A DNA stretch of 64,000 nt from Planctomycetota bacterium (GTDB lineage Bacteria; Planctomycetota; B15-G4; JADJEK01). Where the stretch lies: contig JACQZJ010000076.1 of NCBI GenBank assembly GCA_016213895.1, forward strand, positions 1,291 through 65,290, read 5' to 3'. The position numbers and the translations under genes were made by a program. Below the pieces are notes generated by a model. The model did no database searches. It saw only the letters and a program-made list of their open reading frames with translations, and was not told where the DNA came from. Shown one piece after another: positions 10,253 through 61,094 of this stretch (position 1 is the stretch's first letter; each line of letters begins with the position of its first letter).

Positions 10253-11011
10253 ATGAAGACAGAACAGCGCGTGATGCTCGGCGTGGACGTGGAGTCGGAC
10301 TGGGGAAGCGGTTCGCGCTCCGGCATCGAGACGGTGCTGCCGCGCCTGCTGGCGCTGTTTCACGAGTGCGCGGTGCGGGCCACGTTCTTCGTGGTCGGCG
10401 AGCTGGCCGCCGCTTTTCGCGAGCAGGTCGATCCAGGCGGTCCCCACGAAGTGGGCTCGCACGGGTTGACCCACGCGCTCCTCGACCGTCTCGATTGGGA
10501 CGGGGTAATGCGCGAGGTCGTCGGGTCGAAAGAGCGCCTCGAGTCCGCCGGCTACGAGGTCAGGGGCTTCCGCGCGCCGTTCCTGCGGTCGCCTCCCTGG
10601 CTCGCGACCATCGTGAGAGACGCCGGCTACGGGTACGACGCGTCCGAAGGCTCCGTCTACCCCGATCCCCGCGTCTTCTTCTCGCGCTCGCGCCGGCCTC
10701 GCCGCCAGGACGGCCTGCTCCGGCTGGGCGTGTCCACGCTTCGCGATCGCATCACGCCTGCTTCCCTGACCTACCTCAGGCTCTACCATCCGCTCGGGCT
10801 CCGGCTCTTCTCGCCGAGCGCGCACTTCTTTTCCTGCCATCTCCACGAGCTCTTGGAGGCGCGCGGCGGCTGGCAGCGCCTGCCGTCCCCGCTGCGCCGG
10901 CTGCATGGGCGAAAGTCCGGGCAAGCGGCCTTTCGCATCCTCGAGACGCTGCTCCGGCGCCCCGGCCTGCGCTTCGTCAGTTGCCGGGAGTTCCTCGACG
11001 AGGCGCTCTGA
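10253..11011 (+). CDS. Polysaccharide deacetylase (NodB-homology, carbohydrate esterase family 4-like)
   Basis: The motifs LGVDVESDWGSG, ATFFVVGE and the conserved HGLTH histidine motif are present, at about 250 aa. Confidence 0.85.
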   Translation: MKTEQRVMLGVDVESDWGSGSRSGIETVLPRLLALFHECAVRATFFVVGELAAAFREQVDPGGPHEVGSHGLTHALLDRLDWDGVMREVVGSKERLESAGYEVRGFRAPFLRSPPWLATIVRDAGYGYDASEGSVYPDPRVFFSRSRRPRRQDGLLRLGVSTLRDRITPASLTYLRLYHPLGLRLFSPSAHFFSCHLHELLEARGGWQRLPSPLRRLHGRKSGQAAFRILETLLRRPGLRFVSCREFLDEAL

Positions 11012-12434: not shown

Positions 12435-12731
12435 GCGGTCTCCGCGTCCTGCTGCCGGCCGCTCGCGGCCGCGACCCCTTCCCTCGACGACTTCGATCCA
12501 GCGCTTGATGCGACGGAGCGACTCTACCGGTGCGACCGTGCCGGGGACAAGTCCTGCCGCCGCGCCAGCCGGGAGCGGCGCCCATGCCGGCCTCCATACC
12601 TGGAAGGCAGCAGACGCAGCGCTTTCCCCTTGACTTGCCCGCGCTTCGATCGACACAATCGTGGCCGTAGTGAACGGGTCGCTCCAGGGGTTCGATGGGT
12701 CCGGGCATCGCCCGCCGGGAGAGGCGACAGG

Positions 12732-22620: not shown

Positions 22621-25600
22621 CTAGCGCGCGACCGGCTCCTTGTACTCGGGGCGCGGCCGCGGCGGGTCGCGCTCGAGCGCGGCCAGAGCCAGCTCCACCG
22701 CCTTCTCGAGCTGCGGATCGCGGCCGGCGATGACCTCCTTCGGCCACTCGATGACCTCGTAGTCCGGGGCCACGCCGATGTTCTCGACCGCCCACTCGCC
22801 GTTCTCGTCCATCACGCCGAAGTTCGCCGCGGTGACGAACCCGCCGTCCATGAGCGCGGGGTAGCCGGAGATGCCGACCAGGCCGCCCCAGGTGCGCGTG
22901 CCCACGAGCGGTCCGACGCCCTCCTTCTGGAAGGCCCACGGCATCCAGTCGCCGCCCGAGCCCGCCGACTCGTTGATGATCATGACCTTCGGCCCTTCGA
23001 TCGTGCCGAAGGGGGTCTGGCCGACCCACCTCTCGCGGTTCATCCAGTAGGAGATCACGTTGCGCGAGAGGATGTCGATCACGTAGTCCGCGGCCTGGCC
23101 GCCGCCGTTGTAGCGCTCGTCCAGGATCACGCCCTGCTTGCCGAGCTGGCTGAAGAAGTCGCGGTCGAAGGCGGCCATGCCGCCGCCCGCCGTATCCGGC
23201 ATGTAGATGTAGGCCAGCCGTCCGCCGGACAGCTCGCTCACGCGCTGGCGGTTCGACTCGATCCAGGAAAGGTGGCGCAGGCCGAACTCGTCCCCGATCG
23301 GCACCACCGTCATGGTGCGCGCGTCGTTGCCGTCGGGCTTCGAGGCGAGCGTGATTTCCACCTGCCGGCCCGCGGTGTTCTCGAAGGCGCGGAAGATGTT
23401 CTCGTCCGCCATGACCGGCCGGCCGTTCACGGTGATCAAGTAGTCGCCGGCGCGTGCGTCCACGCCCGGGCCGGTCAAGGGCGCGCGCAGCCCGGGGTTC
23501 CAGTTCTGCCCGCGGTAGATCCGGGTGATGCGGTAGCGCTGCCGGTCGACCTCGTAGTCGCAGCCGAGCAGGCCGACGGAGACGCCGCCCGGCGGGCCCG
23601 GCATCTCGCCGCCGCCGCAGTACTCGTGGCCGCAGCACAGCTCGCCGATCATCTCGGAGACGAGCACGTTCAGGTCGGCGCGGTGCTTGACGTGCGGTAG
23701 GAAGGCGGACCAGCGCCGCCATATCGCCGGCCAGTCGACGTGGTGCATGTTCGGGTCGTAGAAGTAGTCGCGCTCGATGCGCCACGCCTCGCGCAGGATC
23801 TGCGGCCACTCCTCGGCCGGCTCGACGCGCACCGTCACCCCGCCGATGTTCAGGCCCTTGGCGTCCTGGCCCGAGGCGTTTCGGATCGACCAGCCGCCCC
23901 CCTCGCTGGTGAGCAGCCACTGGCCGTCCCCGGACACGCGGAAGCCGTTGATCCCGCCAGCCAGCGTGTTGCTCTTGCGCGAGTCGAAGTCGAAGCTCTT
24001 GAGTTCGGGCCCGCCCCCGCGCGGCGCCTGGATGAAGAGCAGCTTGTCCTTGCTGCAGGCCAGGTTGTAGTAGATGCCGGAACCGAGCGGCAGGGCCAGG
24101 ATCCGCTGGTCGAGGCCCTCGAGGTCGATGGAGGGCTTCTCCTCCTTCTTCTCTTCCTCTTTCTTCTCCTCGGGCTTGGGCGCCTCCTCTTTCTTCTCCG
24201 CGGCCGGAGCCTCTCCCTCGGCCTTCTTCTCGCCCTCCTGGGGCGCTTTCTCCTCTGCCGCGGCCGCGCCTTCCCCGCCGTCTTCCTTCTTCTCGTCCTT
24301 CTTGTCCTCCTCCTTCTTGTCCTTGTCGGGCTTGTCCTTCTCGTCCTTCTTCTTCGTTGGCCGCGCCGAAGTCGTCCGTGAGCGAGGTGGTGGTGCGGGT
24401 CGCCAGCTCGTAGAGGGAGATGTGGTCGTAGAGAGTGCGCAGGTTGCGGTTCTCGTAGGCGATCCACTTGGAATCGGGCGACCACACGGCCGTGGGCCGC
24501 ACCACGCCGAGGGAGCCCTGCACGCTGCCGAATTCGGTCAGCACGCCGCTCTCGAGCGTGACTAGGCCCAAGCGGTTCCCCTTGTCCGTGAACAGGATGT
24601 GCTTGCCGTCCGGGCTCCAGACCGGGTCGTAGAAGAAGCCGCCGTCGCCGAGGTCGTAGCTGCGGGCGGGCTTTCGGCCGCGCGCGTCTCCCACCATGAG
24701 CTGGTACTCGCCGCTCGCGTCCGAGAGCCATGCGACCTGCTCGCCGTCCGGCGACCAGACCGGGCTGCGCTCGTGCACCCCGGGCGAGTTGGTGAGGTTG
24801 CGCGGGTCGCCGTGCTCGCGCGGCACGGTGATGATCTCGCCGCGCGCCTCGAAGACCGCGCGCTTGCCGTTCGGCGCCACGTCCGCCGCGCGCACCGCGC
24901 CGCCCACCGCCTGCCAGCGCGGCAGGGCGGCCAGGTCGTCGGCGCGGATCCGGATGGCGAGGCGCTCCGAGGTGCGTCGTTCCGGGTCGTAGAGGTGCAG
25001 CGACCCGGCCTGCTCGAAGACGATCACGCCTCCGCCGGCGCTCATGGAGCGGATGTCGAAATCGGTGAAGTAGGTGAGCTGCTCGGCCTTGCCCGAGCCG
25101 GGCGCGTAGCGCCACAAGTTCATGTGGTCGTCGCGGTCCGAGGCGAAGTAGACCTGGCCGTCGAGCCAGCAGGGGAAGGTGTCGGTAGCGTGCGCGTGGG
25201 GGATCTCCTCGACCTCGTGCGTCGCGGGGTCGTAGATCCAGACGGGCGGGACCGTGCCGCCGCGATGCCGCTTCCAGGTGCGGAAGGCGTCGCGGATGGG
25301 GGTGTAGGCGATGCGCGAGGCGTCCGCGTTGTAGGCCGCGTGGTTGGCCTTGGGGATCTCGAGCATGGCGGGCGTGGAGCCGCCGTCGGTTTCTGCCAGG
25401 AAGAGGCGCGGTGCCGGCGCGCCCGAGGCGCGCATGCTGCGGAACAGCACGCGCTTGCCGTCCGGATGCCAGCCGAGCACGCGGTCCTCCCCAGGGTGCC
25501 AGGTCAGGCGGCGCGGCGCCCCGCCCTCGACCGGCACGACGTAGACGTCGGTGTTGCCTTCGTACTGGCCGGAGAAGGCGATGTGGAGTCCGTCGGGGCT

Positions 25601-25840
25601 GAAGCGCGGCGCGACCTCGGCGCCGGAGCTGCTCGTGAGCCGGCGCGCTTCGCCTCCCCTGCGCGGGGCGACCCAGATGTCCGCGGCGTAGACGAAGGCC
25701 ACATGCTCGCGCGAGACCGAGGGGTCCTGGAGCAAGAGGGTCTCCTCGTCGGGCCGCGCGCGCGCGGTTTGCAGGGCGAGGCACAGGAGGAAGGCAACGG
25801 CGCAGGCGGCGCGCCACGGGGACGGGCGGGCTGCGGTCAT
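22621..25840 (-). CDS. Tricorn-protease-like S41 peptidase with N-terminal PD40/TolB-like beta-propellers and a K/E-rich linker; reading frame shifted near 24345-24365
   Basis: The N-terminal frame (25840 to about 24360) has a signal peptide and WD-like PD40 repeats (SPDG...). The C-terminal frame, open upstream of the 438-aa ORF to about 24355, gives KKDEKDKPDKDKKEEDKKDEKKEDGGEGAAAAEEKAPQEGEKK...KPSIDLEGLDQRILALPLGSGIYYNLACSKDKLLFIQAPRGGGPELKSFDFDSRKSNTLAGGINGFRVSGDGQWLLTSEGGGW followed by the S41 peptidase domain. The two parts join only via a 1-nt frame change in gccaacgaagaagaagg. Confidence 0.8.
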
Positions 25841-26022
25841 GGGCGGCTCCTCAGTGGTTCGCGAGAGGGCGGCGAGTCCGGCAATCTACCTCGGCCGGTC
25901 GGGTCGAGCCATCGCGGGGCAATCCTTACTGGAGCGGGGAGGCCCCTGTTGGGAGGAAATCCCCGTCTCGCGGCTGGCGGCGGCTCTGCGGCGCCGCCGC
26001 CCTGTGCTACTTTCGTAAGATC

Positions 26023-27429
26023 ATGGCTGGAGAAGAGCGTTTCGCCGGCGCCGCCGTGACCGCGGAGCTGCTGCGGAAGTACGACCGGCCCGGGCCGCGC
26101 TACACCTCGTATCCCACGGTGCCGGTGTGGAGCGGCAGCTTCGGCCCCGCGGATTACGAACGCCGCCTGCAGCGCGCCGGGCGCGAGGCCCGGGATCTGC
26201 CCTTCTCCCTGTACGTGCACGTCCCCTTCTGCGCCTCGCTCTGCTTCTACTGCGCGTGCAACGTGGTCGTCACCCGCAGGCGCGAGGTGGTGGCGCCGTA
26301 CCTCGCGCACGTGGAGCGCGAGATCGAGCTGGTCTCCGCCCGGATCGGCGAACGGCGCACGGCCACGCAGCTCCACCTGGGCGGCGGCACGCCCACTTAC
26401 CTTGCGCCGGCCGAACTGCGCCGCCTGGTTTCGGCGCTCCGCGCGCGCTTCCAGATCCTGCCAGGCGCCGAGATGGCAATCGAGGTCGACCCGCGCGTCA
26501 CCACGCGCGCGCACCTGGAGGCGCTGTCTTCCCTCGGCTTCAACCGCGTCTCGCTCGGCGTCCAGGACTTCTCGCCGCGCGTGCAGCGCGCGGTGAACCG
26601 CCGCCAAAGCGAGGAAGAGACGCGCGCCGCGGCCGACACGGCGCGCGCGCTCGGCTTCGCCTCGGTCAACGTCGACCTCATGTACGGGCTGCCGGAGCAG
26701 ACCGAGGAGGACTTCGCGCGCACGCTCGACGTGGTCCTCGACCTGCGGCCTGATCGCGTGGCGCTCTTCTCCTACGCCCACCTGCCGTGGCTCAAGCCGG
26801 CACAGGCCTCGTTCGAGCGCAAGGGATACGACCTGCCCGGGGCGGAGCGCAAGTTCGCCATCTTCCGCGCCGCCCACGACCGCTTCCTGAGCGCGGGCTA
26901 CGGCCAGATCGGCATGGACCACTTCGCCCTGGCCGAGGACGAGCTGGCGCGCGCGCGCGACGGCGGCTACCTCTTCCGCAACTTCCAGGGCTACACCGTG
27001 CGGCCCGCGCCCGACTCGCTCGCTTTCGGCGTCACCGGCATCTCGGACGTGGCCGGCTGCTACGCGCAGAGCGCGCGGCAGCTCGAGGAGTACTACCGCT
27101 TCCTGGACAACGGGTCGCTGCCGGTGGTGCGCGGCTGCGAGGTGACCGCCGAGGACGCGCTGCGGCGCGACGTGATCCTGGGCCTCCTCTGCAACTTCAC
27201 GCTCGACCTGGGGAAGATCGAGGAGCGGCACCGCATCGCCTTCGCCGAGCACTTCGCCGCCGAGCTGGCGCAGCTCCGGGACTTCGCGGCCGACGGGCTG
27301 GTCAAGCTCTCCGCGCGCGCCATCGACGTCACGCCGCTCGGGCGCTTCTTCATCCGCAACGTGTGCATGGTCTTCGACGCCCGCCTGCCGCGCGCGGGCG
27401 ACAGGCCGCTCTTTTCTCGCACCGTGTGA
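26023..27429 (+). CDS. hemN: Oxygen-independent coproporphyrinogen III oxidase (radical SAM)
   Basis: The CxxxCxxC cluster CASLCFYCAC and the GGGTPTYL and HemN C-terminal motifs are present, at 468 aa. Confidence 0.9.
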   Translation: MAGEERFAGAAVTAELLRKYDRPGPRYTSYPTVPVWSGSFGPADYERRLQRAGREARDLPFSLYVHVPFCASLCFYCACNVVVTRRREVVAPYLAHVEREIELVSARIGERRTATQLHLGGGTPTYLAPAELRRLVSALRARFQILPGAEMAIEVDPRVTTRAHLEALSSLGFNRVSLGVQDFSPRVQRAVNRRQSEEETRAAADTARALGFASVNVDLMYGLPEQTEEDFARTLDVVLDLRPDRVALFSYAHLPWLKPAQASFERKGYDLPGAERKFAIFRAAHDRFLSAGYGQIGMDHFALAEDELARARDGGYLFRNFQGYTVRPAPDSLAFGVTGISDVAGCYAQSARQLEEYYRFLDNGSLPVVRGCEVTAEDALRRDVILGLLCNFTLDLGKIEERHRIAFAEHFAAELAQLRDFAADGLVKLSARAIDVTPLGRFFIRNVCMVFDARLPRAGDRPLFSRTV

Positions 27430-30759: not shown

Positions 30760-31403
30760 GGAGAACTCCCTCTTCCTTTCCAACCCTTTCACCAATGTTC
30801 CTTCCTCGTTCGGCGCGGCCGATCCCCGGCACGGCGCCAAGGGGGAGGACGCCTGCCGTTGAAGACCGGCCTTCCGCCGCCGGGTTCCGCGGACTACTGT
30901 AGCCGAAGCCGGGCGGGCCGCGATAGACCGGATTTTCGCCGCCGGCAGCGCCCGCCTGGTCCTTCGCGCCGGGCCCGGGGGACGCGTTCCCCCTTTGATG
31001 GCTCGGGTCGCGGGTCTTTGCGTTGATTTTCAAGAAAAAGCGAACGGCGGGGGGCGCGCGGCGGCGTCCGGGCCTGCTGCTGCTCGCGCACCGCGGCCGT
31101 GGCCGTGCCCGTGGCCGGCCTGGCGCTGGCCGGCGCGCTCTGGGAGAGCGGCCGGGTCACGCTGCCCCTGCCCCGCGCGCGGCCCGCGGCCCTGCCCGCG
31201 CCCGAGCAGGCGCGCCGCGCCGGCGACGACTACCTCGTGGTGACGCGGCGGAACGTCGCCAACCTGGAAGCCGCGCTGGCGCGAAACAACAAGTAGGGTC
31301 GAGGCGGCCGGGGCGCCGCTTTCCCGGACGGCCGCATCCTGGCGGCGCATATGATGTCCGTCCCGCCGGCGCGCGCCGGCTTGCACCACGGAGATCGACC
31401 CAG

Positions 31404-32288
31404 ATGCGTTGTCTGCCGCTTGCGTTCTGCTGCCTCGCCTTGGGCTGCGCCGCCTACTGTCCGCCGCGCGAGGTCGCCGCCACCCTGAACCAGGCGGTGC
31501 ACGCCGCGCAGATCCAGATCGAGCGCGAGAACCCCCTGGCGGCGGCGCAGCTCGTCGAGGCGGTGCTGCGCATCGACCCCGAACACGCGAGCGCCCGGCA
31601 GGTGAAGGAGTCGATCTCCTCGCCGCAGGTCGAGTTCCTGTTCGAGCAGAGCCCGATCGGCTCGAACCGCGCGCGCCGCGTGCCGATCGAGCGCTCGCTC
31701 GGCGCGCGCATCGGCCTCTACCTGCCGGACCGGCTGCTCGACCTGCTGGACGTGCTCTCCTTCGACGTGCACCTCGGCCTGGGCGTGCTGGTGAACGTGC
31801 ACGTCACGCGGGCGGTGCAGGTCGGCGCGGGCGGACGCGCCACCGGCGGCTTCGGCTGGCACGACCACCGCTCGCTCGGGGTGCTGGCCCAGACGGAGAG
31901 CGAGTTCGTCCTGCCCGGAGTGGGCGCCCAGGCCTACCTGGGGGCGCTCGCCGGCACCTCCGGCCTGCTGGCGACCGGCGACGCCCTGGCCGGCGTGCAT
32001 GCGCCTTCCGCGGAGCTGTACCAGGAATACCGCGACTACTGGGCGGTGGGCGTCTCGGTCACCGCGGTGGTGGTCGGGCTCGACCTCGACATCCACCCGC
32101 TGGAGATCGCCGACTTCGCGGCCGGCCTTTGCACCTTCGACTTCCTGTACGACGACCTCGCCGCGACCACGGGCCTGGGGCTTTCGCACACCGAGCGCGC
32201 GCTGCTTTGGCAGCTGTCCGACATCGGCCGCTCCCAGCGCACGATGGAGGCGTACCTCGCGACCGTGGAGGCGGAGCGCGGGAAGTAA
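31404..32288 (+). CDS. Hypothetical lipoprotein
   Basis: The start is MRCLPLAFCCLALGCAAYCP (lipobox LALGC). The 294 aa downstream look like a real protein. The upstream 380 bp of the 421-aa track ORF are Arg/Gly-rich artefact. Confidence 0.5.
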   Translation: MRCLPLAFCCLALGCAAYCPPREVAATLNQAVHAAQIQIERENPLAAAQLVEAVLRIDPEHASARQVKESISSPQVEFLFEQSPIGSNRARRVPIERSLGARIGLYLPDRLLDLLDVLSFDVHLGLGVLVNVHVTRAVQVGAGGRATGGFGWHDHRSLGVLAQTESEFVLPGVGAQAYLGALAGTSGLLATGDALAGVHAPSAELYQEYRDYWAVGVSVTAVVVGLDLDIHPLEIADFAAGLCTFDFLYDDLAATTGLGLSHTERALLWQLSDIGRSQRTMEAYLATVEAERGK

Positions 32289-32303
32289 CCCCTGGGGGCG
32301 AAC

Positions 32304-33023
32304 ATGGACTGGGCACTGGTGACCGGCGCGAGCCGGGGGATCGGGCGGGCGATCGCGCTGGCGCTGGCGCGCCTGCCGGCGCACGTGGTGGTCAACTACA
32401 AGTCGTCGCGCGAGCAGGCCGAGGGGGTCGCGGCCGAGATCGGCGCCGCGGGCGGATCGGCCGAGGCGTGCGGCTTCGACGTCGCGGACGCGGCCGCCGC
32501 CGAGCGCGAGGTGCGGCGCCTGATCGAGCGGCGCGGCGCGCCCTACGCCGTGGTCAACAACGCCGGCGTGGTGCGGGACGAGCTCATGGTCTGGCTGACG
32601 CCGGCGGAATGGGAGAGCGTCATCGCCACCAACCTGGGCGGCTTCTTCAACGTGACGCGCCTCTGCCTCAAGGACATGCTGGTGGCGCGGCGCGGCCGCA
32701 TCATCAACGTCAGCTCGGTCGCCGGGCAGCAAGGGAACGCGGGCCAGGTGAGCTACGCGGCTTCCAAGGCCGGTCTGAACGGCGCCACCATGGCCCTGGC
32801 GCGCGAGGTGGCGCGGCGCGGCATCACCGTGAACGCCGTCGCCCCGGGCTACGTCGAAACGGAGATGACTCGTTCTCTCGACGCGGCTACACTGCAGAAG
32901 GCGATCCCGATCGGCCGCTTCGGCCGGCCGGAGGAGGTCGCTTCCCTGGTCGCGTTCCTCTGTTCCGACGGCGCTGCCTACATCACCGGCCAGGTCATTG
33001 CGGTGAACGGAGGTCTGGTCTAG
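32304..33023 (+). CDS. fabG: 3-oxoacyl-ACP reductase (SDR family)
   Basis: TGASRGIGRAIA is the cofactor-binding motif. The NNAG, S...YAASKAG catalytic triad (YxxxK) and PGYVETEMT are also present, at 239 aa. Confidence 0.9.
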   Translation: MDWALVTGASRGIGRAIALALARLPAHVVVNYKSSREQAEGVAAEIGAAGGSAEACGFDVADAAAAEREVRRLIERRGAPYAVVNNAGVVRDELMVWLTPAEWESVIATNLGGFFNVTRLCLKDMLVARRGRIINVSSVAGQQGNAGQVSYAASKAGLNGATMALAREVARRGITVNAVAPGYVETEMTRSLDAATLQKAIPIGRFGRPEEVASLVAFLCSDGAAYITGQVIAVNGGLV

Positions 33024-33313
33024 TGGCAGGTTCCGAGTCCGCGGATCCCGGCGTCGAGGCCGTCGTGAACCGCATCATGATCGACGAGTTCGAGTGCGCG
33101 GAGGCGGCGCTGCGGCCCGAGGCCCTGCTGAACGAGTACCTCAGCCTCGACAGCCTGGACGGCGTCGATCTGGTCGTGGCCCTGGAGAAGGCGTTCCGCT
33201 GCCGCATCGCCGAGGAAGAAGCGCGCGGCATCAAGACGCTCGGGGACATCTACGCGAAGGTTCGCTCCCGGCTTGCCGGCGCCGCGGCGCCCGCGGACGG
33301 AGGGGGTGCTTGA
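33024..33313 (+). CDS. Acyl carrier protein
   Basis: LDSLDGVDLVVALEKAF is the phosphopantetheine-attachment motif DSL. A GTG start immediately after the fabG TAG (TAGTG) gives the expected helix-I spacing. Confidence 0.75.
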
Positions 33314-33597
33314 GCGGCGCGGCCGAGCCTCCCGCGGAGTTCATTCCGCACCGGCCGCCGATCCTTTGCGTGGACGAGATCGTCGAGATGGCGGAGGAGC
33401 GCGTGGTGTGCGCGGGGCTGGTGCAGGCCGGGCCGCACGCGTGCGCGGGCGAGATGTGGGAGGAGGGGCTGATCGAGGGGCTGGCGCAGGCGGCCGGGGT
33501 GATGCACGGCGCGCTCCTCAGGAAGCGCGGCCTGCCTCCCGGCTTGGGGCTGCTCGTCGGGATCCGCGGATTCGCGGTGCGGCGCCGCGCGCGCTGA
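33311..33597 (+). CDS. Short hot-dog-fold protein, FabZ/FabA-like N-terminal segment (IPHRPP motif), non-canonical start
   Basis: FIPHRPPILCVDEIVEM matches the FabZ LPHRYPFLLVDRV block. Only about 95 aa are open, and a TTG/CTG start overlaps the ACP stop. Confidence 0.45.
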
Positions 33598-33603
33598 AGT
33601 GTC

Positions 33604-33625
33604 CCCTCTCCCCTTGGGGAGAGGG
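33604..33625. other. Perfect 10-bp inverted repeat hairpin (CCCTCTCCCC-TT-GGGGAGAGGG) between two hot-dog genes
   Basis: The hairpin is read directly from the sequence. It lies between the TGA at 33595-97 and the GTG at 33631, just upstream of the AAGGAGG RBS of the next gene. Confidence 0.8.
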
Positions 33626-33630
33626 CCAGG

Positions 33631-34026
33631 GTGAGGGGTAAGGAGGTCGACGCGCTGCGCGTGGTCTGGCACGGCCACTACCTCACCTACTTCGAGGAGG
33701 GGCGCACCGCGTTCGGCCGGGAGTACTCCCTCGGCTACGAGCAGATCCTCGCCGCGGGCTGCGTCGCGCCCCTGGTGCGGGTGGAGGTCGACTTCCTGGC
33801 GCCGGCGACGTACGGGGACCTGCTCAGCGTGCGCACGCGCATGCACGCGGCCAGCGGCGCGCGCCTCGACTTCTCGTACCTGATCACGGACGGCGCCGGC
33901 CGCAGCCTCGCGGCCGGGTCCTCGGTGCAGGTCTTCACCGAGCTGGACGGGACCCTGGTGCTGACGCGTCCCCCCTTCTTCGAGCGCTTCCTGGCCGAGA
34001 ATGCCGGGCGGATGAGGGCGGGATGA
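33631..34026 (+). CDS. 4HBT/YbgC-like acyl-CoA (or acyl-ACP) thioesterase, hot-dog fold
   Basis: VVWHGHYLTYFEEGRTAFGRE matches the 4HBT block (HxNYLxYFExxRxxx). The gene is 131 aa, has an AAGGAGG RBS, and overlaps the next gene via ATGA. Confidence 0.7.
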   Translation: MRGKEVDALRVVWHGHYLTYFEEGRTAFGREYSLGYEQILAAGCVAPLVRVEVDFLAPATYGDLLSVRTRMHAASGARLDFSYLITDGAGRSLAAGSSVQVFTELDGTLVLTRPPFFERFLAENAGRMRAG

Positions 34027-34439
34027 GCGCACGCGGCGGGGCGGCGGGGCTGCGCGAGGAGGCGGCGGGCTGCTTGACCGCCGTCGAGCCGGGCGCGGGC
34101 GCGCTCAGCGCGACCTTCCTCTTCCCGCGGGATCTCGCCGTGTTCGCCGGGCACTTTCCCGGCTCTCCGCTGGTGCCCGGGGTCTACCTGGTCGAGGCGG
34201 TGCGCGCGGCGCTGGAGCGGGCGCGCGGCCGCTCCCTCAGGCTGGTCGAGGTGCGGGACGCGCGCTTCACGGCGCCGGTCCTGCCGGGCGACCTGGTGCG
34301 CGTGGAGGTGGCGCACGCGGGCGGCGCTCCGCCCTGGTCGTGCCAGGCGGTCCTGTCGCGGCGCGGGGAGGTCGCGGCGCGCATCGAACTCGTGCTGGCG
34401 CTCGAGGAAGGGCAACGGGACGCGGACCCTGGGCTATGA
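34023..34439 (+). CDS. FabZ-like 3-hydroxyacyl-ACP dehydratase (hot-dog fold)
   Basis: FAGHFPGSPLVPGVYLVEAVRAA matches the FabZ catalytic block FxGHFPxxPVMPGVLxxEA. Confidence 0.75.
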   Translation: MSARGGAAGLREEAAGCLTAVEPGAGALSATFLFPRDLAVFAGHFPGSPLVPGVYLVEAVRAALERARGRSLRLVEVRDARFTAPVLPGDLVRVEVAHAGGAPPWSCQAVLSRRGEVAARIELVLALEEGQRDADPGL

Positions 34440-34482
34440 TGGCGGTACCGCCCGCGCCGGGGCGCAAGGCGGCGAGAGAACC

Positions 34483-35715
34483 GTGAGCCTGGAACAGCGA
34501 GTCGTCGTCACCGGCATGGGGGCGATCTCCTGCCTCGGAGAGAGCCTGGAGGAGATCGCGCGCGCCCTGCGCGAGGGGCGCTCCGGCGTGGTCTACGCGC
34601 CTGAGCGCAAGGAGCGCGGCTTCCGCTCGGCGCTCATGACGCGCCTGCCGGAGGTAGACGTCAAGGGCGAGCTGGATCGTAAGGCGCGCAAGTTCATGCC
34701 CGAGGCCGCGGTCTACTGCGCCCTCGCCGCCAACCGCGCGCTCCGCTCCGCGCATCTCCGCCGCGAGCAGGTGGCGCGCCCGGACGCCGGCATCATCATC
34801 GGCAACGACTCCTCCTCGGAGTGCCTGCCGGAGATGATGGCCACGCTGCAGCAGTACGGCGAGTCGCACTTCCTCGGCTCGAACATGGTCATCAAGGTCA
34901 TGAACTCGACCGTGTCCATGAACCTCGGGCCGTACCTCGGTGCCAAGGGCATCAACCTGACGATCAGCGCGGCGTGCAGCAGCGGCGCGCACGCTCTCGG
35001 TCTCGCCTACCAGCTCATCCGCTCCGGCGCGCAGCGCCTGATCTTCGCCGGCGGCGCCCAGGAGACCAACTGGGTGTCGATGGTGAGCTTCGACGCGCTC
35101 AACACCTTCAGCGTGCGCCACGAGGACCCGCGCGCCGCGTCGCGGCCGTTCGACCGCGGCCGCGACGGCCTCGTGCCCGGCGGCGGCGGCGCGCTGCTCG
35201 TGCTGGAGAGCCTGGAGAGCGCGCGCGCGCGCGACGCGCGCATCTACGGCGAGATCGTGGGCTACGCCTTCTCCTCGGACGGCGACCATCTGACGCTGCC
35301 TTCCGGGGACGGCGCGCTGCGCTGCATGCGGGCGGCGCTGGCCGCGGCCGGGATCGCGCCGCGCGACGTGGACTACATCAACGCCCACGCCACATCGACG
35401 CCGCAGGGCGACCAGGTGGAGGCCGGCGCCATCCACGAGCTGTTCGGCGCCGCCGGCCCGCCGGTCTCCTCGACCAAGTCGATGACCGGCCACGAGTGCT
35501 GGATGGCGGGCGCCTCCGAGGCGATCTACTGCCTGCTCATGATGCAGGACGGCTTCCTCGCCCCGAACATCAACTTCGAGGCGTTCGACGAGCAGACGCC
35601 CGAGATCAACGTCATCGCCGAGACGCTCACCGGCGAGGCGGACGTCGTGCTGTCGAACTCCTTCGGGTTCGGCGGCACGAACGCATGCCTCGTGCTGAAG
35701 CGCTTCCGGCAGTAG
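34483..35715 (+). CDS. Beta-ketoacyl-ACP synthase (KAS I/II-type)
   Basis: The active-site Cys is in ISAACSSGAHA. The His residues are in INAHATSTPQGD and MTGHECWMAGASE, followed by C-terminal NSFGFGGTNA, at 410 aa. Confidence 0.9.
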   Translation: MSLEQRVVVTGMGAISCLGESLEEIARALREGRSGVVYAPERKERGFRSALMTRLPEVDVKGELDRKARKFMPEAAVYCALAANRALRSAHLRREQVARPDAGIIIGNDSSSECLPEMMATLQQYGESHFLGSNMVIKVMNSTVSMNLGPYLGAKGINLTISAACSSGAHALGLAYQLIRSGAQRLIFAGGAQETNWVSMVSFDALNTFSVRHEDPRAASRPFDRGRDGLVPGGGGALLVLESLESARARDARIYGEIVGYAFSSDGDHLTLPSGDGALRCMRAALAAAGIAPRDVDYINAHATSTPQGDQVEAGAIHELFGAAGPPVSSTKSMTGHECWMAGASEAIYCLLMMQDGFLAPNINFEAFDEQTPEINVIAETLTGEADVVLSNSFGFGGTNACLVLKRFRQ

Positions 35716-35731
35716 GGAGGGGCGGGCGGCA

Positions 35732-37210
35732 GTGGCGCAGGCCGACGTCGTCGTCATCGGCGCAGGGCTGTCGGGGCTGGTTTGCGCCATCCTCCAGGCC
35801 GAGACCGGGCGCAGGGTGGTCGTGCTCGAGCGCCACGATGTGCCCGGCGGCTACCAGCAGCAGTTCCAGCGCAAGGGCACGGTGTTCGACGTCGGCTACC
35901 ACTACATGGGCTCGACCGCCCCCGGGCGGCCCATGCGCCAGTTCCTGGAGTACCTGCGCATCTGGGACAGGCTGCGCCTCTTGCCGCTTCCCGAGGACGC
36001 GGCCATCGAGGTGGCGAACGGCGCGCGGCGCTTCGCTTACCCGAACGGCTGGGCGCGCTTCCGGGAGAAGGCGCTCGCCGCCTGGCCGCACGAACGGGCG
36101 GGGCTCGAGCGCATGTTCCAGGACATTCCCGCCGTGACCGGGGAGTACAAGTGGTTCGACCTGGCGCGCGGCAAACCGTACGCGCACCCGCTCGACCTCG
36201 GGTTCACGTCGATCTCACTCGCGGAGTACCTGCGGCCGCTGGTGCAGGACCCCTGGCTCCTGCAGGTGCTGGGGGTGCAGGCCTTCAACCTGGGACTGCT
36301 GGCGCACGAGGCGCCGTGGGTCAAGTACGCCCTCGCCCTGCGCTCGAACTTCGACCTGACCAGCCGCATCGCCGGCGGCGGCGGCGCGCTGGTCGCGGCG
36401 CTGGTGGAGCGCGGCCGCGAACTCGGCGTGGACTACCACCTGCGCTCCGAGGTCGTGGGCTTCGAGTGCGCGCAGCGGCGCGTGCGGCGCGTGCGCACCG
36501 CCGACGGCGGCGCCTACGCGGCCGACCTGTTCATCGCCGCCTGCCACCCGAAGGCGGTCCTGGCGCGCATCCGCGACGAGGACGTCAGCCCGGTTTTCAA
36601 GGAGCGCGTGCAGAGCATGAAGGACTCGCGCGGCGCGCTGCAGGTGTTCCTGCGCCTCAAGGAGCTGCCGCGCTCGCTCGGCCGCTCCTGCCTGATGATC
36701 GTGGACGAGGAGGAGGCGCGCCGCGATCCGCCGATCCACATCGTGCTGGTGTGCAACCCCGCCGCCGTCGAGGGGCCGGAGCTCGGCGGCCCGCGCCTGG
36801 AGCTCATGACCTTCCTGGAGCACGCGCCGTTCGCCTCCTGGGCCGGGACGCAGGCCATGCGGCGCGGGGCGGAGTATGAGCGCTTCAAGTGGGCCCTCGC
36901 GCAGCGCGTCATCGACTTGACCACGCGCTTCGCGCCCGAGCTGCCGGAGCTGATCGAGGACATGTACGCGTCGACTCCGCTCACCGACGAGTGGTACACG
37001 CTGAACGCGCACGGCGCGGTCTTCGGCGTGAGCCACGACGTGACCCAGCAGGGCCTGGCGCGGCCGCTGCCGCGCGTGCGCCTGCGCAACCTCTTCTTCA
37101 GCGGGCACTCGATCCAGATGCCCGGCATCTGCGGCGTCTTCATAAACGCCTTCGACACGTGCGAGATGCTGCGCGGCGACGGCGCGCTCTTCGCCGCGGT
37201 CGCGACCTGA
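35732..37210 (+). CDS. FAD-dependent oxidoreductase of the phytoene-desaturase/CrtI-like family
   Basis: VVVIGAGLSGLVCA...VLERHDVPGGY is the dinucleotide-binding fold. The 492-aa length and overall layout match CrtI-type amine-oxidase-fold enzymes. Confidence 0.8.
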   Translation: MAQADVVVIGAGLSGLVCAILQAETGRRVVVLERHDVPGGYQQQFQRKGTVFDVGYHYMGSTAPGRPMRQFLEYLRIWDRLRLLPLPEDAAIEVANGARRFAYPNGWARFREKALAAWPHERAGLERMFQDIPAVTGEYKWFDLARGKPYAHPLDLGFTSISLAEYLRPLVQDPWLLQVLGVQAFNLGLLAHEAPWVKYALALRSNFDLTSRIAGGGGALVAALVERGRELGVDYHLRSEVVGFECAQRRVRRVRTADGGAYAADLFIAACHPKAVLARIRDEDVSPVFKERVQSMKDSRGALQVFLRLKELPRSLGRSCLMIVDEEEARRDPPIHIVLVCNPAAVEGPELGGPRLELMTFLEHAPFASWAGTQAMRRGAEYERFKWALAQRVIDLTTRFAPELPELIEDMYASTPLTDEWYTLNAHGAVFGVSHDVTQQGLARPLPRVRLRNLFFSGHSIQMPGICGVFINAFDTCEMLRGDGALFAAVAT

Positions 37211-37339
37211 GGCGGCGTCTCGTCGTCCTTGCCGGAGAATCGCGGCACCGAGAGAGAGCGCGCGCATTAAAGCCCTCTGTTCGGAGTCGCGCCGCAGGCG
37301 CGGCTTCCCACCCAGTTCACAGAAGGACGGAGGACTGAC

Positions 37340-37849
37340 ATGCTTTCGCGTCGTTCCATGGTGGCGGCCTGCGCCGTGCTGCTCGGCGTCGCAGCCTTCG
37401 GCTTCACCTCGCACGCGGGCCCGGGCTCGACCGCGTGCATCTTCGGCGACACGCACGGCGACTGGCAGACGCCCACGCTCGTGACCCAGGGGTACGCAAA
37501 GGGCCTGCTCTACACGACCAGCGGCACCCTGATGTTCAAGATGGACGCCAAGCTCACGCTCGGGCCGGCGACGTCCGCGACCCAGAAGAGCGGCTACGTC
37601 AAGGGCTACCTCTGGGCCGTGAACAGCCCGACGCCGTCGAGCCAGCCGTACGCCTACGTCCTGGGCAAGTGGGTCGGCGACAGCACCGGCCACGGCAAGT
37701 TCAGCGCGAGCATCTACAAGCTGCCGACGACGACGCCCGTTCCGGCGCCGATCGGCCAGATCAGCGGGGAGTTCTACGATCCGCCGATCTCGACCACTCC
37801 CTATGACCCGGTCGGGAAGTACAAGGGCACGTGGCACATGTGCTTCTGA
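37340..37849 (+). CDS. Small secreted hypothetical protein
   Basis: There is a signal peptide (MLSRRSMVAACAVLLGVAAFGFTSHA). The protein is 169 aa, rich in T/P/Y/G, ends in C-terminal HMCF, and belongs to no recognised family. Confidence 0.5.
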   Translation: MLSRRSMVAACAVLLGVAAFGFTSHAGPGSTACIFGDTHGDWQTPTLVTQGYAKGLLYTTSGTLMFKMDAKLTLGPATSATQKSGYVKGYLWAVNSPTPSSQPYAYVLGKWVGDSTGHGKFSASIYKLPTTTPVPAPIGQISGEFYDPPISTTPYDPVGKYKGTWHMCF

Positions 37850-37928
37850 GGCCGAGGTTCACCCAGCAGGAGGCCGGGCTCCCTCGGGGGACCGGCCTCT
37901 CTTCTTGCATCGACGGCCGGCCGCGGGC

Positions 37929-38666
37929 ATGCTCGGCAGGGTGATCTCCACGGCACGCTCTCGCCCTATCCTGCTTGCGGCCCTGCTTCCAGCGCTGGCC
38001 GCCTGCTCCCTCTTCACTCGGTCGAGCGAGGCGGATCTGAGGAGGGTCGAGAGCTTCGGCGCGGGCAGGGTGGCGGGAGCGGTGGGGAACAAGCTCGTGG
38101 CGCACTTCGCGCCCGGGACGGAGGTCTACTCCTTCGACCACGAGGAGGGGGGGATCACTGTCGCGGTCACCGAGGTCGAGAACGACTACGACCGGCTGCG
38201 CATCGTGGCGCACCTCACCCTGCGGAGCCGCTTCGCGGAGGAGCTGCGCTTCACGCTCGCCGACGTGCGGCTCGACTACCGGGGCGTGGAGTACGGTGCG
38301 CAGGACGCCGCGCTTTGGCGCGAGAAGTCCGGGTTGAAGCCAGGCGTGGAGGAGAGCCGGTCCTGGGCCTTCCCGATCGGCACCTGGGTGGACGCCGGGA
38401 TCTACCAGGTGACGATTCGCGCCTTCCACCGCTCCGTGGACGGGCGCCTCGCGCCCGTCGCTTTCCAGGTCGCCTTCCCGATCAAGGTCCCGGGCGAGAA
38501 GCGTTCGCGGCTGTTCGGATGGGAGCCGGAGGGGGCGGTGAGCGGAGCGGTCGCGGCCGCTTCCCCGGCCTCCGGGGCCGGATCGCGACTCCCGGTGCAT
38601 CGAGCGCGCGACGAACGTCGAGCGGCTCTACGAGGCGTAGGCGAAGCAGGCGGTTCGTCGTGGTGA
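37929..38666 (+). CDS. Hypothetical lipoprotein
   Basis: The start is MLGRVISTARSRPILLAALLPALAACSLF (lipobox LAAC). The upstream part of the ORF is artefact. The C-terminal about 35 codons overlap the conserved 60-bp element, so the true stop is uncertain. Confidence 0.5.
   Translation: MLGRVISTARSRPILLAALLPALAACSLFTRSSEADLRRVESFGAGRVAGAVGNKLVAHFAPGTEVYSFDHEEGGITVAVTEVENDYDRLRIVAHLTLRSRFAEELRFTLADVRLDYRGVEYGAQDAALWREKSGLKPGVEESRSWAFPIGTWVDAGIYQVTIRAFHRSVDGRLAPVAFQVAFPIKVPGEKRSRLFGWEPEGAVSGAVAAASPASGAGSRLPVHRARDERRAALRGVGEAGGSSW
38559..38617. repeat. Copy A of a conserved ~60-bp element (GCTTCCCCGGCCTCCGGGGCCGGATCGCGACTCCCGGTGCATCGAGCGCGCGACGAACG)
   Basis: It aligns base-by-base with copies at 41599-41656 and 51274-51333. 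Confidence 0.8.
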
Positions 38667-41796: not shown

Positions 41797-44412
41797 ATGA
41801 GGCCCTGCGTCATTGTTCCGGCCTACGAGAACGAGCGCACCGTCGCCGCGGTGGCGCGCGGCGCCGCGGCGCTGGGGCTTCCGGTCATCGTCGTGGACGA
41901 CGGGTCGCGCGATCGCACGGCCGAGGCCGCGCGGGAGATCGACGGCGTGACCGTGCTGCGCCACGAGCGGAACCAGGGGAAGGGCGCGGCCCTGCGGAGC
42001 GGGTTCTTGGCGGCCGCGGAGCGGGGATTCACGCACGCGCTGACCATCGACGCGGACGGCCAGCACCTGCCCGAGGACATTCCGCGTTTGCTGGAAGCCG
42101 CGCGCGCGGAGCCCGCGGCGCTCATCCTCGGCGCGCGCGACCTGGCCGCGGCCGGGGCCGGGCGCGGCTCGCGCTTCGGCCGCGCCTTCTCGAACTTCTG
42201 GACCCTGGTCGAGACCGGGCTCCGGCTCGAGGACACGCAGAGCGGATTCCGCCTCTATCCCCTCGGGGCGCTCGCGGCGTTGCGCCTCGAGGCCAGCGGC
42301 TACGACTTCGAGATCGAGGCGCTGGTCAAGGCCGCCTGGAGCGGCGTGCCCGTGCGCTCCGTCCCGGTGCGCGCGCGCTACTTCCAGGGAGCGGAGCGCG
42401 TGTCGCACTTCCGGCCGTTCCTGGACTTCGCCCGCATCAGCCGCCTGAACACGCGCCTGGTGACGCTGCGCATCTGTCTGCCGCGAGCCTGCCTGGCAGC
42501 CCTGTTCCGGCGCGATCTGGCCCATCTCTCCTGGCCGCGGCGTCTGTGGCGAGGCCTCGCGCTCGCCCGCGGCCGCGCGCGGCGCAGGGTCCCTCTGCCG
42601 TTCCTGCTGCTTCCGGCCGGAACCGGCCTCGTGCTCGCGGCCGCGGCGCTGCAGGGCGCGGCGCGGGTCGTCTCGTTCGCGGGCGCGCTCGGGCTCCTCG
42701 CCGGCGCCGCCGCCATCCTGGCGTTTCTCTTCCGGCGCGCCGAGCTCTTCCTGGCGGCCTTCCTGCCGGCCGCGGTCGGACTGCTGCTGGCGCTCGGTGT
42801 CGCGGGCTTCCTGGGCGGCGTTTCTCCAGGTCCGGCCGCGGGCGCCGCGCTTGCCGCGGCACTCGCGCTCGAGGCGGCCGCCCTGCTCCTCGCCTATCTG
42901 CGCCGCTTCCGCGGGCAGAAGGACCGCGTCGCCCTGGTCGCCTGGAGCGTGCCCGTCACGGCCGCGCTCGCCGCCCTCGCCTGGCGCGCCGGCCTGGGAC
43001 CGCCGTGGCCGCAAGGCTGGCCGGCCCTGGTCGCGGGAACGTGCGGCGTGCTGCTCCTCTCGCCCTTCTGCTGCCGCGCCGTGCTGGTGCGCGCCGGGCC
43101 AAACGGCACGCCCGCGCCCGCGAACATGCTCGCGGCCCTGCGCGTGTTCTGGCTGATGCTCGCCGGTGGCGCGCGGCACTTCCTGGCGCGCGCGCCGGGC
43201 GCGAACCGGCGAGCGGCGCAGCGCGCCGCGGTCGATCGCATCCAGGCCATCGCCCGCGCCATCCAGCAGGGCGTGCCGCTCGGCCGGCGCGTCTTCCTCG
43301 GTCTGGAGCGCATCCCGCGCGGCCAGCCCTGCGTCGTGGTCGCGAACCACGAGTCCATGTACGACATCATGGCAGCTCTCGCCCTGCCGCTGCCCCTTCG
43401 CATCCTCGCCAAGAGGTGGGTGTGGAGGATGCCCGTGCTCGGGGCCATGGTGCGCGCCGCCGGCTACATCCTGGTCGAGGAGGATCGCACGGAGGCCCTG
43501 TTCGAACAGGCGGCCCGTTCGCTCGCGGAAGGCGTCTCGCTTCTCGTCTTTCCCGAGGGGACGCGCAGCCGCAGCGGCAGGATGGGCCGCTTCCACAACG
43601 GCGCCTTCGCCATCGCGCGGCGCTGCGGCGTGCCCGTGCTGCCGGTGGCCATGGTGAACACGCGCGAGACGGTTCCGCCGGGCACCTGGTGGGTGGGGGA
43701 GCACGACGCGCGCATCGTCGTGCTCGAGGCCATGGACCCGGGCGCCTTCAGCGGCGAGGGCGCCGACCGCAGGATGGCTCGCGCGGCGCGCGAGCGCATC
43801 GCCGCGTGCTGCCGCGACCTCTGGCTCGAGACCCAGTACGGGCCGGTCTGGCATCGCATCCTCTCCGGCATGTACCGCTGCCGGGGACTGCGCGCGAACG
43901 CGGCCGCGCGCGGGATCCGGAGCGATCCGTTCCTTCACGCCCTGCCGCGCCTCTGCGCGGGGAACGGGCGCGTCCTCATCCTCGGCTGCGGCTTCGGTCT
44001 CAGCGCCGCGCGCCTGGCGCTCGCCTATCCGGCGCGCGAGATCATCGCGGTCGGGCCGCCCGGCCGCGCGCTGCGCGCCGCGCGCGCCGCCCTGGGGGAC
44101 CGCTTCCCCGTCGCCTTCGTCGCGGCGGATCCAGCCGCGTGCGAGGCGCCGCCGGCGCAGTGGACCATCCTCGACGTCCTGGCTCTGCGCCAGGAGGCGT
44201 TTCCCGCGCTCTTGCGGCGCGTGGCCGGGGTCGCGGCGCCGGGCGCGCGCCTGCTGCTGCGCGGCCGGCAGGGCGACTGCGAGCGAGCGCTCGCGGAATG
44301 CGGCTTCGCCGTGGACGAGGAGCGCGGCGACCTCTGCCGGGCCGGAGAGGTCGTGCTCCTCTGCACCCCGCGGGCGTTCAGCCCGTCTGGCGGAACGTCG
44401 CGGTGCGGTTGA
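41797..44412 (+). CDS. Tri-domain fusion: GT2 glycosyltransferase + polytopic membrane region + lysophospholipid-acyltransferase (PlsC-type HX4D) + class I SAM methyltransferase
   Basis: The start is MRPCVIVPAYENERT. The GT2 region has the motifs VVDDGSRDRT...TIDADGQH. The membrane region has Ala/Leu-rich TM runs. The acyltransferase region has VVANHESMYD (HX4D) and FPEGTRS. The C-terminal region has VLILGCGFG (GxGxG SAM motif). Confidence 0.8.
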   Translation: MRPCVIVPAYENERTVAAVARGAAALGLPVIVVDDGSRDRTAEAAREIDGVTVLRHERNQGKGAALRSGFLAAAERGFTHALTIDADGQHLPEDIPRLLEAARAEPAALILGARDLAAAGAGRGSRFGRAFSNFWTLVETGLRLEDTQSGFRLYPLGALAALRLEASGYDFEIEALVKAAWSGVPVRSVPVRARYFQGAERVSHFRPFLDFARISRLNTRLVTLRICLPRACLAALFRRDLAHLSWPRRLWRGLALARGRARRRVPLPFLLLPAGTGLVLAAAALQGAARVVSFAGALGLLAGAAAILAFLFRRAELFLAAFLPAAVGLLLALGVAGFLGGVSPGPAAGAALAAALALEAAALLLAYLRRFRGQKDRVALVAWSVPVTAALAALAWRAGLGPPWPQGWPALVAGTCGVLLLSPFCCRAVLVRAGPNGTPAPANMLAALRVFWLMLAGGARHFLARAPGANRRAAQRAAVDRIQAIARAIQQGVPLGRRVFLGLERIPRGQPCVVVANHESMYDIMAALALPLPLRILAKRWVWRMPVLGAMVRAAGYILVEEDRTEALFEQAARSLAEGVSLLVFPEGTRSRSGRMGRFHNGAFAIARRCGVPVLPVAMVNTRETVPPGTWWVGEHDARIVVLEAMDPGAFSGEGADRRMARAARERIAACCRDLWLETQYGPVWHRILSGMYRCRGLRANAAARGIRSDPFLHALPRLCAGNGRVLILGCGFGLSAARLALAYPAREIIAVGPPGRALRAARAALGDRFPVAFVAADPAACEAPPAQWTILDVLALRQEAFPALLRRVAGVAAPGARLLLRGRQGDCERALAECGFAVDEERGDLCRAGEVVLLCTPRAFSPSGGTSRCG

Positions 44413-61088: not shown

Positions 61089-61094
61089 GGGCGG

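Follow-up and report, generated by a model that had tools for sequence, protein, structure and literature searches.

A compact planctomycete operon with a CrtI-fold flavoprotein, a probable reduced sub-cluster of the aryl polyene family

The operon and its conservation

A 64-kb stretch of contig JACQZJ010000076.1, from the Planctomycetota assembly GCA_016213895.1 (hereafter the window), carries seven consecutive genes on the + strand for a ketoreductase (KR), an acyl carrier protein (ACP), two hot-dog dehydratases (DHs), a thioesterase (TE), a beta-ketoacyl-ACP synthase (ketosynthase, KS) and a flavoprotein of CrtI fold. We consider this operon here as a candidate member of the aryl polyene (APE) family of type II polyketide synthase/fatty acid synthase (PKS/FAS) systems. 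The window has a GC content of ~71%, and genuine frames can be picked out by their third-position GC, which is 0.92–0.97 in each of the seven. An original prediction had placed seven overlapping, co-directional genes at this locus, and all seven open reading frames are present with the coordinates and overlaps that it gave. The TAG stop of the KR gene shares one base with the GTG start of the ACP gene (TAGTG), the first hot-dog gene starts with TTG and overlaps the ACP gene by TTGA, and the second overlaps the TE gene by ATGA. The same gene order, with overlaps of 1–4 nt, is kept in L210, in which the same strain was assembled independently by Logan from run SRR12113406, and in a sister species (L004). 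The latter is a metagenome-assembled genome (MAG) recovered from mine water in Africa. Under the label Phycisphaera mikurensis (GCA_020723465.1), it is the nearest species representative, and its flavoprotein is 89% identical to that of the window.

A predicted lipoprotein gene just upstream of the KR gene is probably the first gene of the operon. It holds the equal position in the sister MAG at 82–83% identity, matches no Pfam family and is unrelated to the DUF3261-like lipoprotein of full clusters. Compared with the sister species, dN/dS is 0.10–0.39 over all eight genes, the lipoprotein gene included (0.13 for the ACP), and over a fusion gene further downstream that is described below, which indicates purifying selection. 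A promoter and terminator scan, which is uninformative for this phylum, gave nothing inside the operon.

Enzymes of the chain-building cycle

Six of the operon products have one-to-one homologues in the APE cluster of Escherichia coli CFT073, the reference for all Ape comparisons in this study, namely ApeQ, ApeF, ApeP, ApeK, ApeI and ApeR. The gene identities put forward originally (KR, ACP, hot-dog proteins, 4HBT protein, beta-ketoacyl-ACP synthase and CrtI-like oxidoreductase) agree with the Pfam and NCBIfam matches. The KR (adh_short, E = 9e-57) has FlxB as its top NCBIfam model (NF053542; 301.6 bits, under its cut-off of 340), clears two generic FabG cut-offs of the same collection (290.9 against 273 and 256.4 against 222 bits) and is 46% identical to ApeQ (E = 6e-63). 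ACP models match the carrier protein down to E = 3e-15, all of them at no more than 56 bits against cut-offs of at least 65; it is 37% identical to ApeF and has no match with ApeE.

The first hot-dog protein is truncated in the window, and its intact form of 141 residues matches PF22817 (ApeP-like) in both L004 and L210, with 25% identity to E. coli ApeP (BLASTP). The second matches PF22818 (ApeI-like) in the same two loci, is 28% identical to E. coli ApeI and keeps both the GHFPGxPxxPG histidine motif and the helix glutamate. The proposal of an ApeP-like/ApeI-like pair was therefore sound. The ApeI-like gene lies directly upstream of the KS gene in nearly all of the relatives' loci that reach that far. 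On TIGR00051 (cut-off 68.7 bits) the TE scores 66.5 bits for the window allele and 77.4 bits for the intact sister protein, and the latter is 29% identical to ApeK. The 95-residue hot-dog protein and the 131-residue TE were also considered as the two halves of a protein of 211–239 residues encoded upstream of the ApeI-like gene in relatives; this was rejected, as that protein is an unrelated lipoprotein.

The KS has two ketoacyl-synt matches (E = 9.5e-36 and 3.7e-34) and fits the KAS I model at E = 4e-126. Because the Cys-His-His triad is intact, as read from the translation, it is predicted to be an active-type KS and not a chain-length factor (CLF). It is 72–75% identical to the KS that adjoins the flavoprotein in full clusters. 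ApeR is its nearest counterpart among the E. coli Ape ketosynthases (33% identity, 221 bits, against 131 bits for ApeO), yet among solved structures FabB scores 335–349 bits and the ApeR-type structures 7f27 and 4ewg 243–263 bits, and orthology with ApeR is thus not clear-cut.

It is hardly credible that these genes form a housekeeping fatty acid synthase operon. The generic FabG scores of the KR and the FabB-like character of the KS would suit that role, but no fabD, fabH, plsX, fabI or acc genes lie nearby, the KS reaches 421 bits on the KAS I/FabB model (cut-off 630) and 351 bits on FabF (cut-off 494), the ACP stays under all of the listed equivalog cut-offs, the DHs match ApeP-like and ApeI-like models, and the relatives' contexts are of APE type. 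The original prediction had likewise set the locus apart from the housekeeping fab operon, and sequence evidence, as far as it goes, excludes a housekeeping FAS II.

A lesion in the window allele

In the window, 44 nt stand where the sister species and L210 have 205 nt of coding sequence (DNA alignment and blastn). The replaced 205 nt span the junction of two genes, with the codons for ~46 C-terminal residues of the ApeP-like protein and ~20 N-terminal residues of the TE. Both truncations stem from this one replacement. Both L210 and L004 hold intact genes for the ApeP-like protein and for a TE of 151 residues. On either side of the lesion L210 is nearly indistinguishable from the window (100% identity over 33641–38590 and 99.93% over 30893–33596). 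The lost C-terminal residues of the ApeP-like protein are conserved in E. coli ApeP and in homologues from Desulfuromonadales (deltaproteobacterial), and the sole possible start codon of the window TE gene lies within the inserted repeat; the window allele is probably impaired. A look-up of the truncated TE product in public assemblies found no record.

Because the 205 nt are intact in an otherwise identical assembly and in the sister species, the truncation can be regarded as an allele-specific lesion. The remnants of the two clipped genes have dN/dS values of 0.26–0.29, within the range of the intact genes, and for this reason relaxed selection on them was rejected and the change appears recent and not a sign of long-standing decay. 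It would be an event of this allele, possibly of this assembly, involving a ubiquitous short repeat, and not a design feature. The truncated hot-dog protein had been taken as a hint of a heterodimeric DH, which does not survive the finding of intact alleles and of a TE clipped by the same deletion/insertion.

The 44-nt replacement carries a palindromic repeat (CCCTCTCCCCTTGGGGAGAGGG and CCAGGGTGAGGGG), with the palindrome followed by a tail (CCCTCTCCCCTTGGGGAGAGGG CCA GGGTGAGGGG). The matches listed for a 35-nt motif at 33604–33638, CCCTCTCCCCNNGGGGAGAGGGNNNGGGTGAGGGG, include more than 120 metagenome contigs (L089–L168 among them) with 42–72% GC and unrelated flanks, and in some of these the motif forms inverted pairs that overlap. 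The motif has the look of a short palindromic repeat common to very different taxa. As a repeat dispersed in this genome it was rejected, since there is only one copy in the 64-kb window, though it is ubiquitous in metagenomes. Its predicted RNA fold is no better than that of shuffled sequences (z = 0.0), and no Rfam family was matched anywhere in the window.

A lesion of this kind raises the question of whether the operon is the non-functional remnant of a once-complete APE cluster that is being lost by deletion. The clipping of two genes by one deletion/insertion would fit, as would the deletion of the MMPL domain from the downstream FlxT/FlxU-like fusion and the absence of many essential APE genes from the window, both considered below. 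We judge this improbable: an intact allele exists in the assembly that is 100% identical beyond the lesion, the sister species has every gene intact with overlaps of the translational-coupling kind, the dN/dS values of the whole set and of the remnants point to a lesion that is recent or polymorphic, and the fusion gene is full length and conserved.

The CrtI-fold flavoprotein and its relatives

The last gene of the operon encodes a flavoprotein with matches to Amino_oxidase (E = 1.2e-18) and NAD_binding_8, an N-terminal GxGxxG site for flavin adenine dinucleotide (FAD), a C-terminal PGxG motif and a conserved G-x-x-F-G-x-S...Q...RP region. Its AlphaFold2 (AF2) model has a pLDDT of 85.9, and the best Foldseek folds are 4rep (E = 1e-26, TM 0.77) and 4dgk, at 16% identity. 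The fold, the FAD site and the PGxG motif are those of CrtI, CrtD, CrtISO and retinol saturase (RetSat), but the identity is only ~16%, the partners are KS, DH and ACP genes and not crtB/crtE, and scores on curated carotenoid-enzyme models lie far under the cut-offs (67–79 bits against 238–640; 78.8 against 549.7 for CrtD, 77.8 against 238.1 for the crtI family and 66.5 against 586.9 for CrtISO). The only carotenoid model matched over the full length in a single stretch is CrtISO, and homologues are often named all-trans-retinol 13,14-reductase (retinol saturase) by the automatic annotation of JGI; both are weak leads on the reaction. Desaturase, saturase and isomerase roles would all be compatible with membership of the CrtI/CrtISO/RetSat superfamily.

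About 78 public proteins are at least 47% identical to the flavoprotein in a word-indexed search, after which identity falls to 29% or less. An exhaustive search gave 321 clusters at E ≤ 1e-30, and two 50%-identity clusters alone hold full-length proteins of at least 47% identity. Two homologues, P0104 (1009 aa) and P0105 (1044 aa), are of double length, match the query in two stretches and may be tandem fusions.

Across several phyla, 19 of 33 loci have a KS gene no more than 400 nt away from the flavoprotein homologue, and the ten loci at 36% identity or more are all among them. Homologues with 55–66% identity, from Planctomycetota, stand in the order ApeI-like, KS, flavoprotein in nearly every context fetched, and most such trios are preceded by genes for a family 2 glycosyltransferase with DUF2062 (GT2+DUF2062), an MMPL-acyltransferase-methyltransferase protein, an ACP, LolA, a lipid A-type acyltransferase and a lipoprotein. 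Depending on the contig, there are also genes for a tryptophan-halogenase-like protein, an FkbO/Hyg5-type chorismatase, an aromatic ammonia-lyase (TAL), an AMP-ligase, a KS/CLF pair, a B12-radical SAM protein and a KR. On gene content, these clusters can be assigned to the flexirubin/xanthomonadin type of APE cluster. Distant homologues (25–29% identity, Desulfuromonadales) are found in clusters of the form FabG-KS-flavoprotein-KS-ACP-acyltransferase...ApeP-LolA-MMPL-ApeI-TE. Two Candidatus Uabimicrobium chromosomes (L009 and L010, ~6900–11500), one of which (Ca. Uabimicrobium amorphum) is annotated as a complete genome, carry a stand-alone unit of B12-radical SAM protein, ACP, KS and flavoprotein amid unrelated genes.

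Counterparts have been described before. Flexirubin clusters list an NAD(P)/FAD oxidoreductase, FlxK, and a 'phytoene desaturase', FlxV (PMC12968099; PMC3992019), the latter mentioned as a possible reductase by way of speculation only (PMC3992019); a pairwise comparison gives ~27% identity between the flavoprotein and the gene that occupies the FlxV position in the Bacteroidota locus L014. CrtI-like amine oxidoreductases were also recorded in FAS-II-like clusters of Kuenenia and Desulfotalea (PMC2649909; PMC4790861). Because of its link with KS genes across loci and of these counterparts, the flavoprotein is not the unusual addition that it had been called. It is instead a regular member of such clusters, and in this cluster subfamily no other gene is linked as faithfully.

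The downstream fusion and the genes lacking from the window

About 4.4 kb downstream of the operon, with four unrelated genes between, lies a gene for a fusion of 871 aa. Its N-terminus is 57% identical to the FlxT-like GT2_DUF2062 protein of the full planctomycete cluster L003, and its C-terminus is 39% identical to residues 788–1163 of the MMPL-acyltransferase-methyltransferase (FlxU-like) protein of the same cluster, with the MMPL part absent. Its identity to the E. coli proteins is 39% for ApeJ and 36% for ApeD, and it has the glycosyltransferase/acyltransferase feature of lipid attachment. The sister MAG has the same fusion at 80% identity with the same neighbours (dN/dS 0.33), and a word-indexed homologue search, limited by its word index, returned only the fusion itself and the sister protein. 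The fusion is probably the attachment enzyme of the pathway.

Several functions that define APE clusters were looked for and gave no match within the 64-kb window. There is a single KS and no ApeO/ApeC-like KS/CLF pair, with no further locus in tblastn searches with the L003 KS2 and CLF or in Pfam scans of the window genes. The same Pfam scans gave no Lyase_aromatic or FkbO domain, and thus no TAL or chorismatase. No match was found in the window for an aryl-acid ligase (ApeH-like or L003-AMP-like), for an ApeE-like ACP, or for the LolA/MMPL/DUF3261 export set (ApeL/M/N), and no dialkylresorcinol genes were seen there. Three sets of candidates were rejected. The flanking proteins 31401–32288, 37340–37849 and 37926–38666 are not cryptic LolA or DUF3261 proteins (hhalign probability <4%). 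An AMP-binding enzyme and ACP at 61–63 kb are not an ApeH/ApeE pair; they belong to a set of fatty acyl-AMP ligase (FAAL), ACP and DltB-like MBOAT protein with no similarity to ApeH or to the L003 ligase. Finally, a radical SAM gene at 26023–27429 is no partner of the cluster, as it encodes a true HemN (530 bits, cut-off 325).

Clusters of relatives are also split. Three of them (L001, L005 and L087) have no KR, ApeP, TE or KS/CLF within ±10 kb. Because several relatives have split APE genes, the missing starter, chain-length-factor and export genes may sit elsewhere in the genome. The lineage appears to keep a rearranged and reduced set, made up of the operon and an attachment enzyme without its transporter domain.

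Likeness to known systems

The APE clusters of E. coli CFT073 and Xenorhabdus doucetiae (ApeA–ApeR; PMC8253772 and Grammbitter et al., cited in it) offer homologues of six operon products, as given above, and of the fusion (ApeJ and ApeD); they share with the window a type II KS/KR/DH cycle without enoyl reductase and a lipoprotein gene at the cluster edge. They differ in gene order, and the window is without ApeC/ApeO, ApeH/ApeE, ApeG and ApeL/M/N in 64 kb. The E. coli cluster has no CrtI-fold flavoprotein, and the window KS is nearer to FabB than to ApeR-type structures.

Points of resemblance to the flexirubin clusters of Flavobacterium johnsoniae and Chitinophaga pinensis (FlxA–Y; PMC3992019; PMC12968099) and to the xanthomonadin type are a KR that scores best on FlxB, a fusion that corresponds to the FlxT-like GT2 joined to the acyltransferase-methyltransferase part of FlxU, and a CrtI-fold enzyme, those clusters having CrtI-family or FAD oxidoreductases of their own (FlxV and FlxK). 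The closer planctomycete relatives resemble these pathways further, in having a TAL or FkbO-type chorismatase together with a halogenase. By contrast, the window is without TAL, chorismatase, ligase, KS/CLF, LolA, lipid A-type acyltransferase and MMPL, and its KR is under the FlxB cut-off.

The clusters of the anammox bacterium Kuenenia (kuste3603-3608 and kuste3335-3352) and of Desulfotalea psychrophila (PMC2649909; PMC4790861) are alike by parts list only, with an ACP, a FabZ-type DH, a FabB/F-type KS and a 'phytoene desaturase' homologue beside the KS. In some planctomycete relatives of the window locus (L003, L086 and Uabimicrobium L009/L010) these parts come with a B12-radical SAM gene, and the four-gene unit of Uabimicrobium resembles kuste3603-3608 in its parts list. 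The window operon differs in having no radical SAM gene, and its host, at 71% GC, does not belong to the anammox bacteria.

A reduced sub-cluster or an autonomous lipid module

On balance, the locus is probably a lineage-specific, reduced sub-cluster of the APE family of type II PKS/FAS systems, within the flexirubin/xanthomonadin branch, and as such a new, cut-down form of an established cluster type. Its host MAG is probably a member of the Phycisphaerae. We infer the following chemistry for the locus. The KS would extend an ACP-bound acyl chain with malonyl units from malonyl-ACP, and the KR with the ApeP/ApeI-like DH pair would convert every beta-keto group to a trans enoyl group. With no canonical enoyl reductase in the operon, the chain would stay unsaturated or conjugated. 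The flavoprotein, which is encoded next to the KS in the closest relatives, may change the redox level or the geometry of a C=C bond as a desaturase, saturase or isomerase, the TE would release or proof-read the chain, and the GT2-acyltransferase-methyltransferase fusion would esterify the acid to a membrane lipid.

A number of observations weigh against this assignment. We know of no enzyme of the flavoprotein clade with demonstrated activity. The KS scores higher with FabB than with ApeR-type structures, and two of the seven operon genes are truncated in the window allele. The KS/CLF pair, the starter ligase with its ACP, the TAL or chorismatase and the LolA/MMPL/DUF3261 set are all absent from the 64 kb, and in E. 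coli nine of 18 ape deletion mutants made no APE-related metabolites, so that many genes of the cluster are essential for the pigment (PMC8253772). Two Kuenenia CrtI homologues carried out no phytoene desaturation and gave no lycopene in E. coli (PMC4790861). Because several defining APE genes are absent from the window, an aryl polyene product cannot be claimed from the locus alone, and no product is visible from the sequence. What stands of the original proposal of an aryl polyene/xanthomonadin-type or specialised lipid locus is a dedicated type II FAS/PKS set of APE, xanthomonadin or flexirubin type.

In an alternative that is possible, if rather unlikely, the genes form an autonomous fatty-acid-type module for a non-aryl envelope lipid with a polyunsaturated or partly saturated chain. 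The flavoprotein would then be an enoyl/polyenoyl reductase (RetSat-like) or an acyl-ACP desaturase, the acid would be put onto a lipid by the fusion, with no need for LolA/MMPL export. In favour of this, the 64 kb lack genes for starter activation, the CLF and export, while what remains is conserved in two species and under purifying selection, and the fusion lacks exactly the MMPL part and is kept at 80% identity. The stand-alone B12-radical SAM-ACP-KS-flavoprotein unit in the complete Ca. Uabimicrobium amorphum genome, the matching parts list of Kuenenia kuste3603-3608 (PMC4790861) and the FabB-like KS are further points in its favour, as are the retinol 13,14-reductase names given by JGI and the full-length match to CrtISO alone among the carotenoid models. 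However, all of the closer flavoprotein homologues (55–66% identity) lie in clusters with APE hallmarks (TAL, chorismatase, halogenase, LolA, MMPL), and split clusters are common, which makes absence from the window weak evidence. The annotation names are automatic, and to our knowledge biochemical data exist for no member of the flavoprotein clade.

The KS-flavoprotein pair occurs in several settings, beside APE-type genes, stand-alone in Uabimicrobium and, in the same parts, in the ladderane-candidate clusters of anammox bacteria. A broader proposal, which we hold to be quite unlikely, is that the FabB-like KS and the CrtI-fold flavoprotein are themselves an autonomous module that recurs across phyla and acts on ACP-bound chains, here uncoupled from aryl polyene synthesis and making, with the KR, DH, ACP and TE, a non-aryl polyunsaturated or selectively saturated envelope lipid. 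If this were so, the flavoprotein would be a new kind of acyl- or polyenoyl-ACP desaturase, reductase or isomerase. Under the preferred assignment to a reduced APE-type sub-cluster, the locus is for the organism itself an ordinary reduced member of a known pigment/lipid pathway, with a lesion in the window copy. It is of use mainly as a small system in which to study the reaction of the KS-flavoprotein pair, as an operon of ~5 kb with KR, ACP, two DHs, TE, KS and flavoprotein is one of the smallest natural contexts for a KS-associated CrtI-fold enzyme.

Features and other observations in the window

The coordinates of the operon, the lesion and the fusion are given in Table 1. The genes around the operon are unrelated to the cluster and encode HemN, a TPR/DUF1570 protein, secreted proteins, a beta-helix protein and an AstE/AspA-like protein. 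The contigs of the sister MAG end right after the flavoprotein gene (L004) and right before the beta-helix gene (L088), and two small secreted/lipoprotein genes of the window (37340–38666) are unassembled or absent in that MAG and present in L210.

Table 1. Positions in the window of the operon genes, the replacement sequence and the downstream fusion.
Feature	Position	Strand	Evidence or remark
Predicted lipoprotein (295 aa, lipobox LALGC)	31401–32288	+	Ends 15 nt before the KR gene; coding signal from near 31390
3-oxoacyl-ACP reductase (ApeQ/FlxB-like KR)	32304–33023	+	adh_short, FlxB model, ApeQ identity; S...YxxxK motif (read from translation)
Dedicated ACP (96 aa, DSLD phosphopantetheine site)	33023–33313	+	PP-binding and ACP models
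ApeP-like hot-dog DH, truncated allele (95 aa against 141 intact)	33310–33597	+	PF22817 on intact alleles
44-nt replacement sequence with palindromic repeat	33597–33640		Alignments and blastn
ApeK-like 4HBT (YbgC-type) TE, N-terminally truncated allele (131 aa against 151)	33631–34026	+	4HBT_2, E = 5e-13
ApeI-like FabZ/FabA-type DH (138 aa; second hot-dog)	34023–34439	+	FabA, ApeI-like and fabZ models
FabB-like beta-ketoacyl-ACP synthase (KS)	34483–35715	+	KAS I model, FabB structures, ApeR identity
CrtI-fold FAD flavoprotein (492 aa); among loci fetched so far, its clade occurs only next to KS genes	35732–37210	+	Amino_oxidase, NAD_binding_8
Fusion of GT2 (FlxT/ApeJ-like), lysophospholipid acyltransferase (ApeD-like) and methyltransferase (C-terminal part of FlxU)	41797–44412	+	Pfam GT2, Acyltransferase, Methyltransf_25

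Elsewhere in the window, a second flavoprotein of amine-oxidase fold is encoded at 10977–12443 on the − strand; it belongs to the PRK07208 family (556 bits against a cut-off of 389), and its context is unrelated to the cluster. A tricorn-type protease is split over two frames at 22621–25855 on the − strand, with the PD40 beta-propeller at 24356–25855 and Tricorn_C1/PDZ/S41 at 22621–24252, and the change of frame near 24300 is a frameshift, a pseudogene or a sequencing error. At 59889–63051 on the − strand, genes for the FAAL (569 aa, 61342–63051), a carrier protein (89 aa) and the DltB-like MBOAT (399 aa) lie in a row and look like a separate acyl-transfer/lipid-modification system, unrelated to the operon; beside them, at 57955–59694 on the + strand, is a gene for a protein with a partial GDSL-lipase match.

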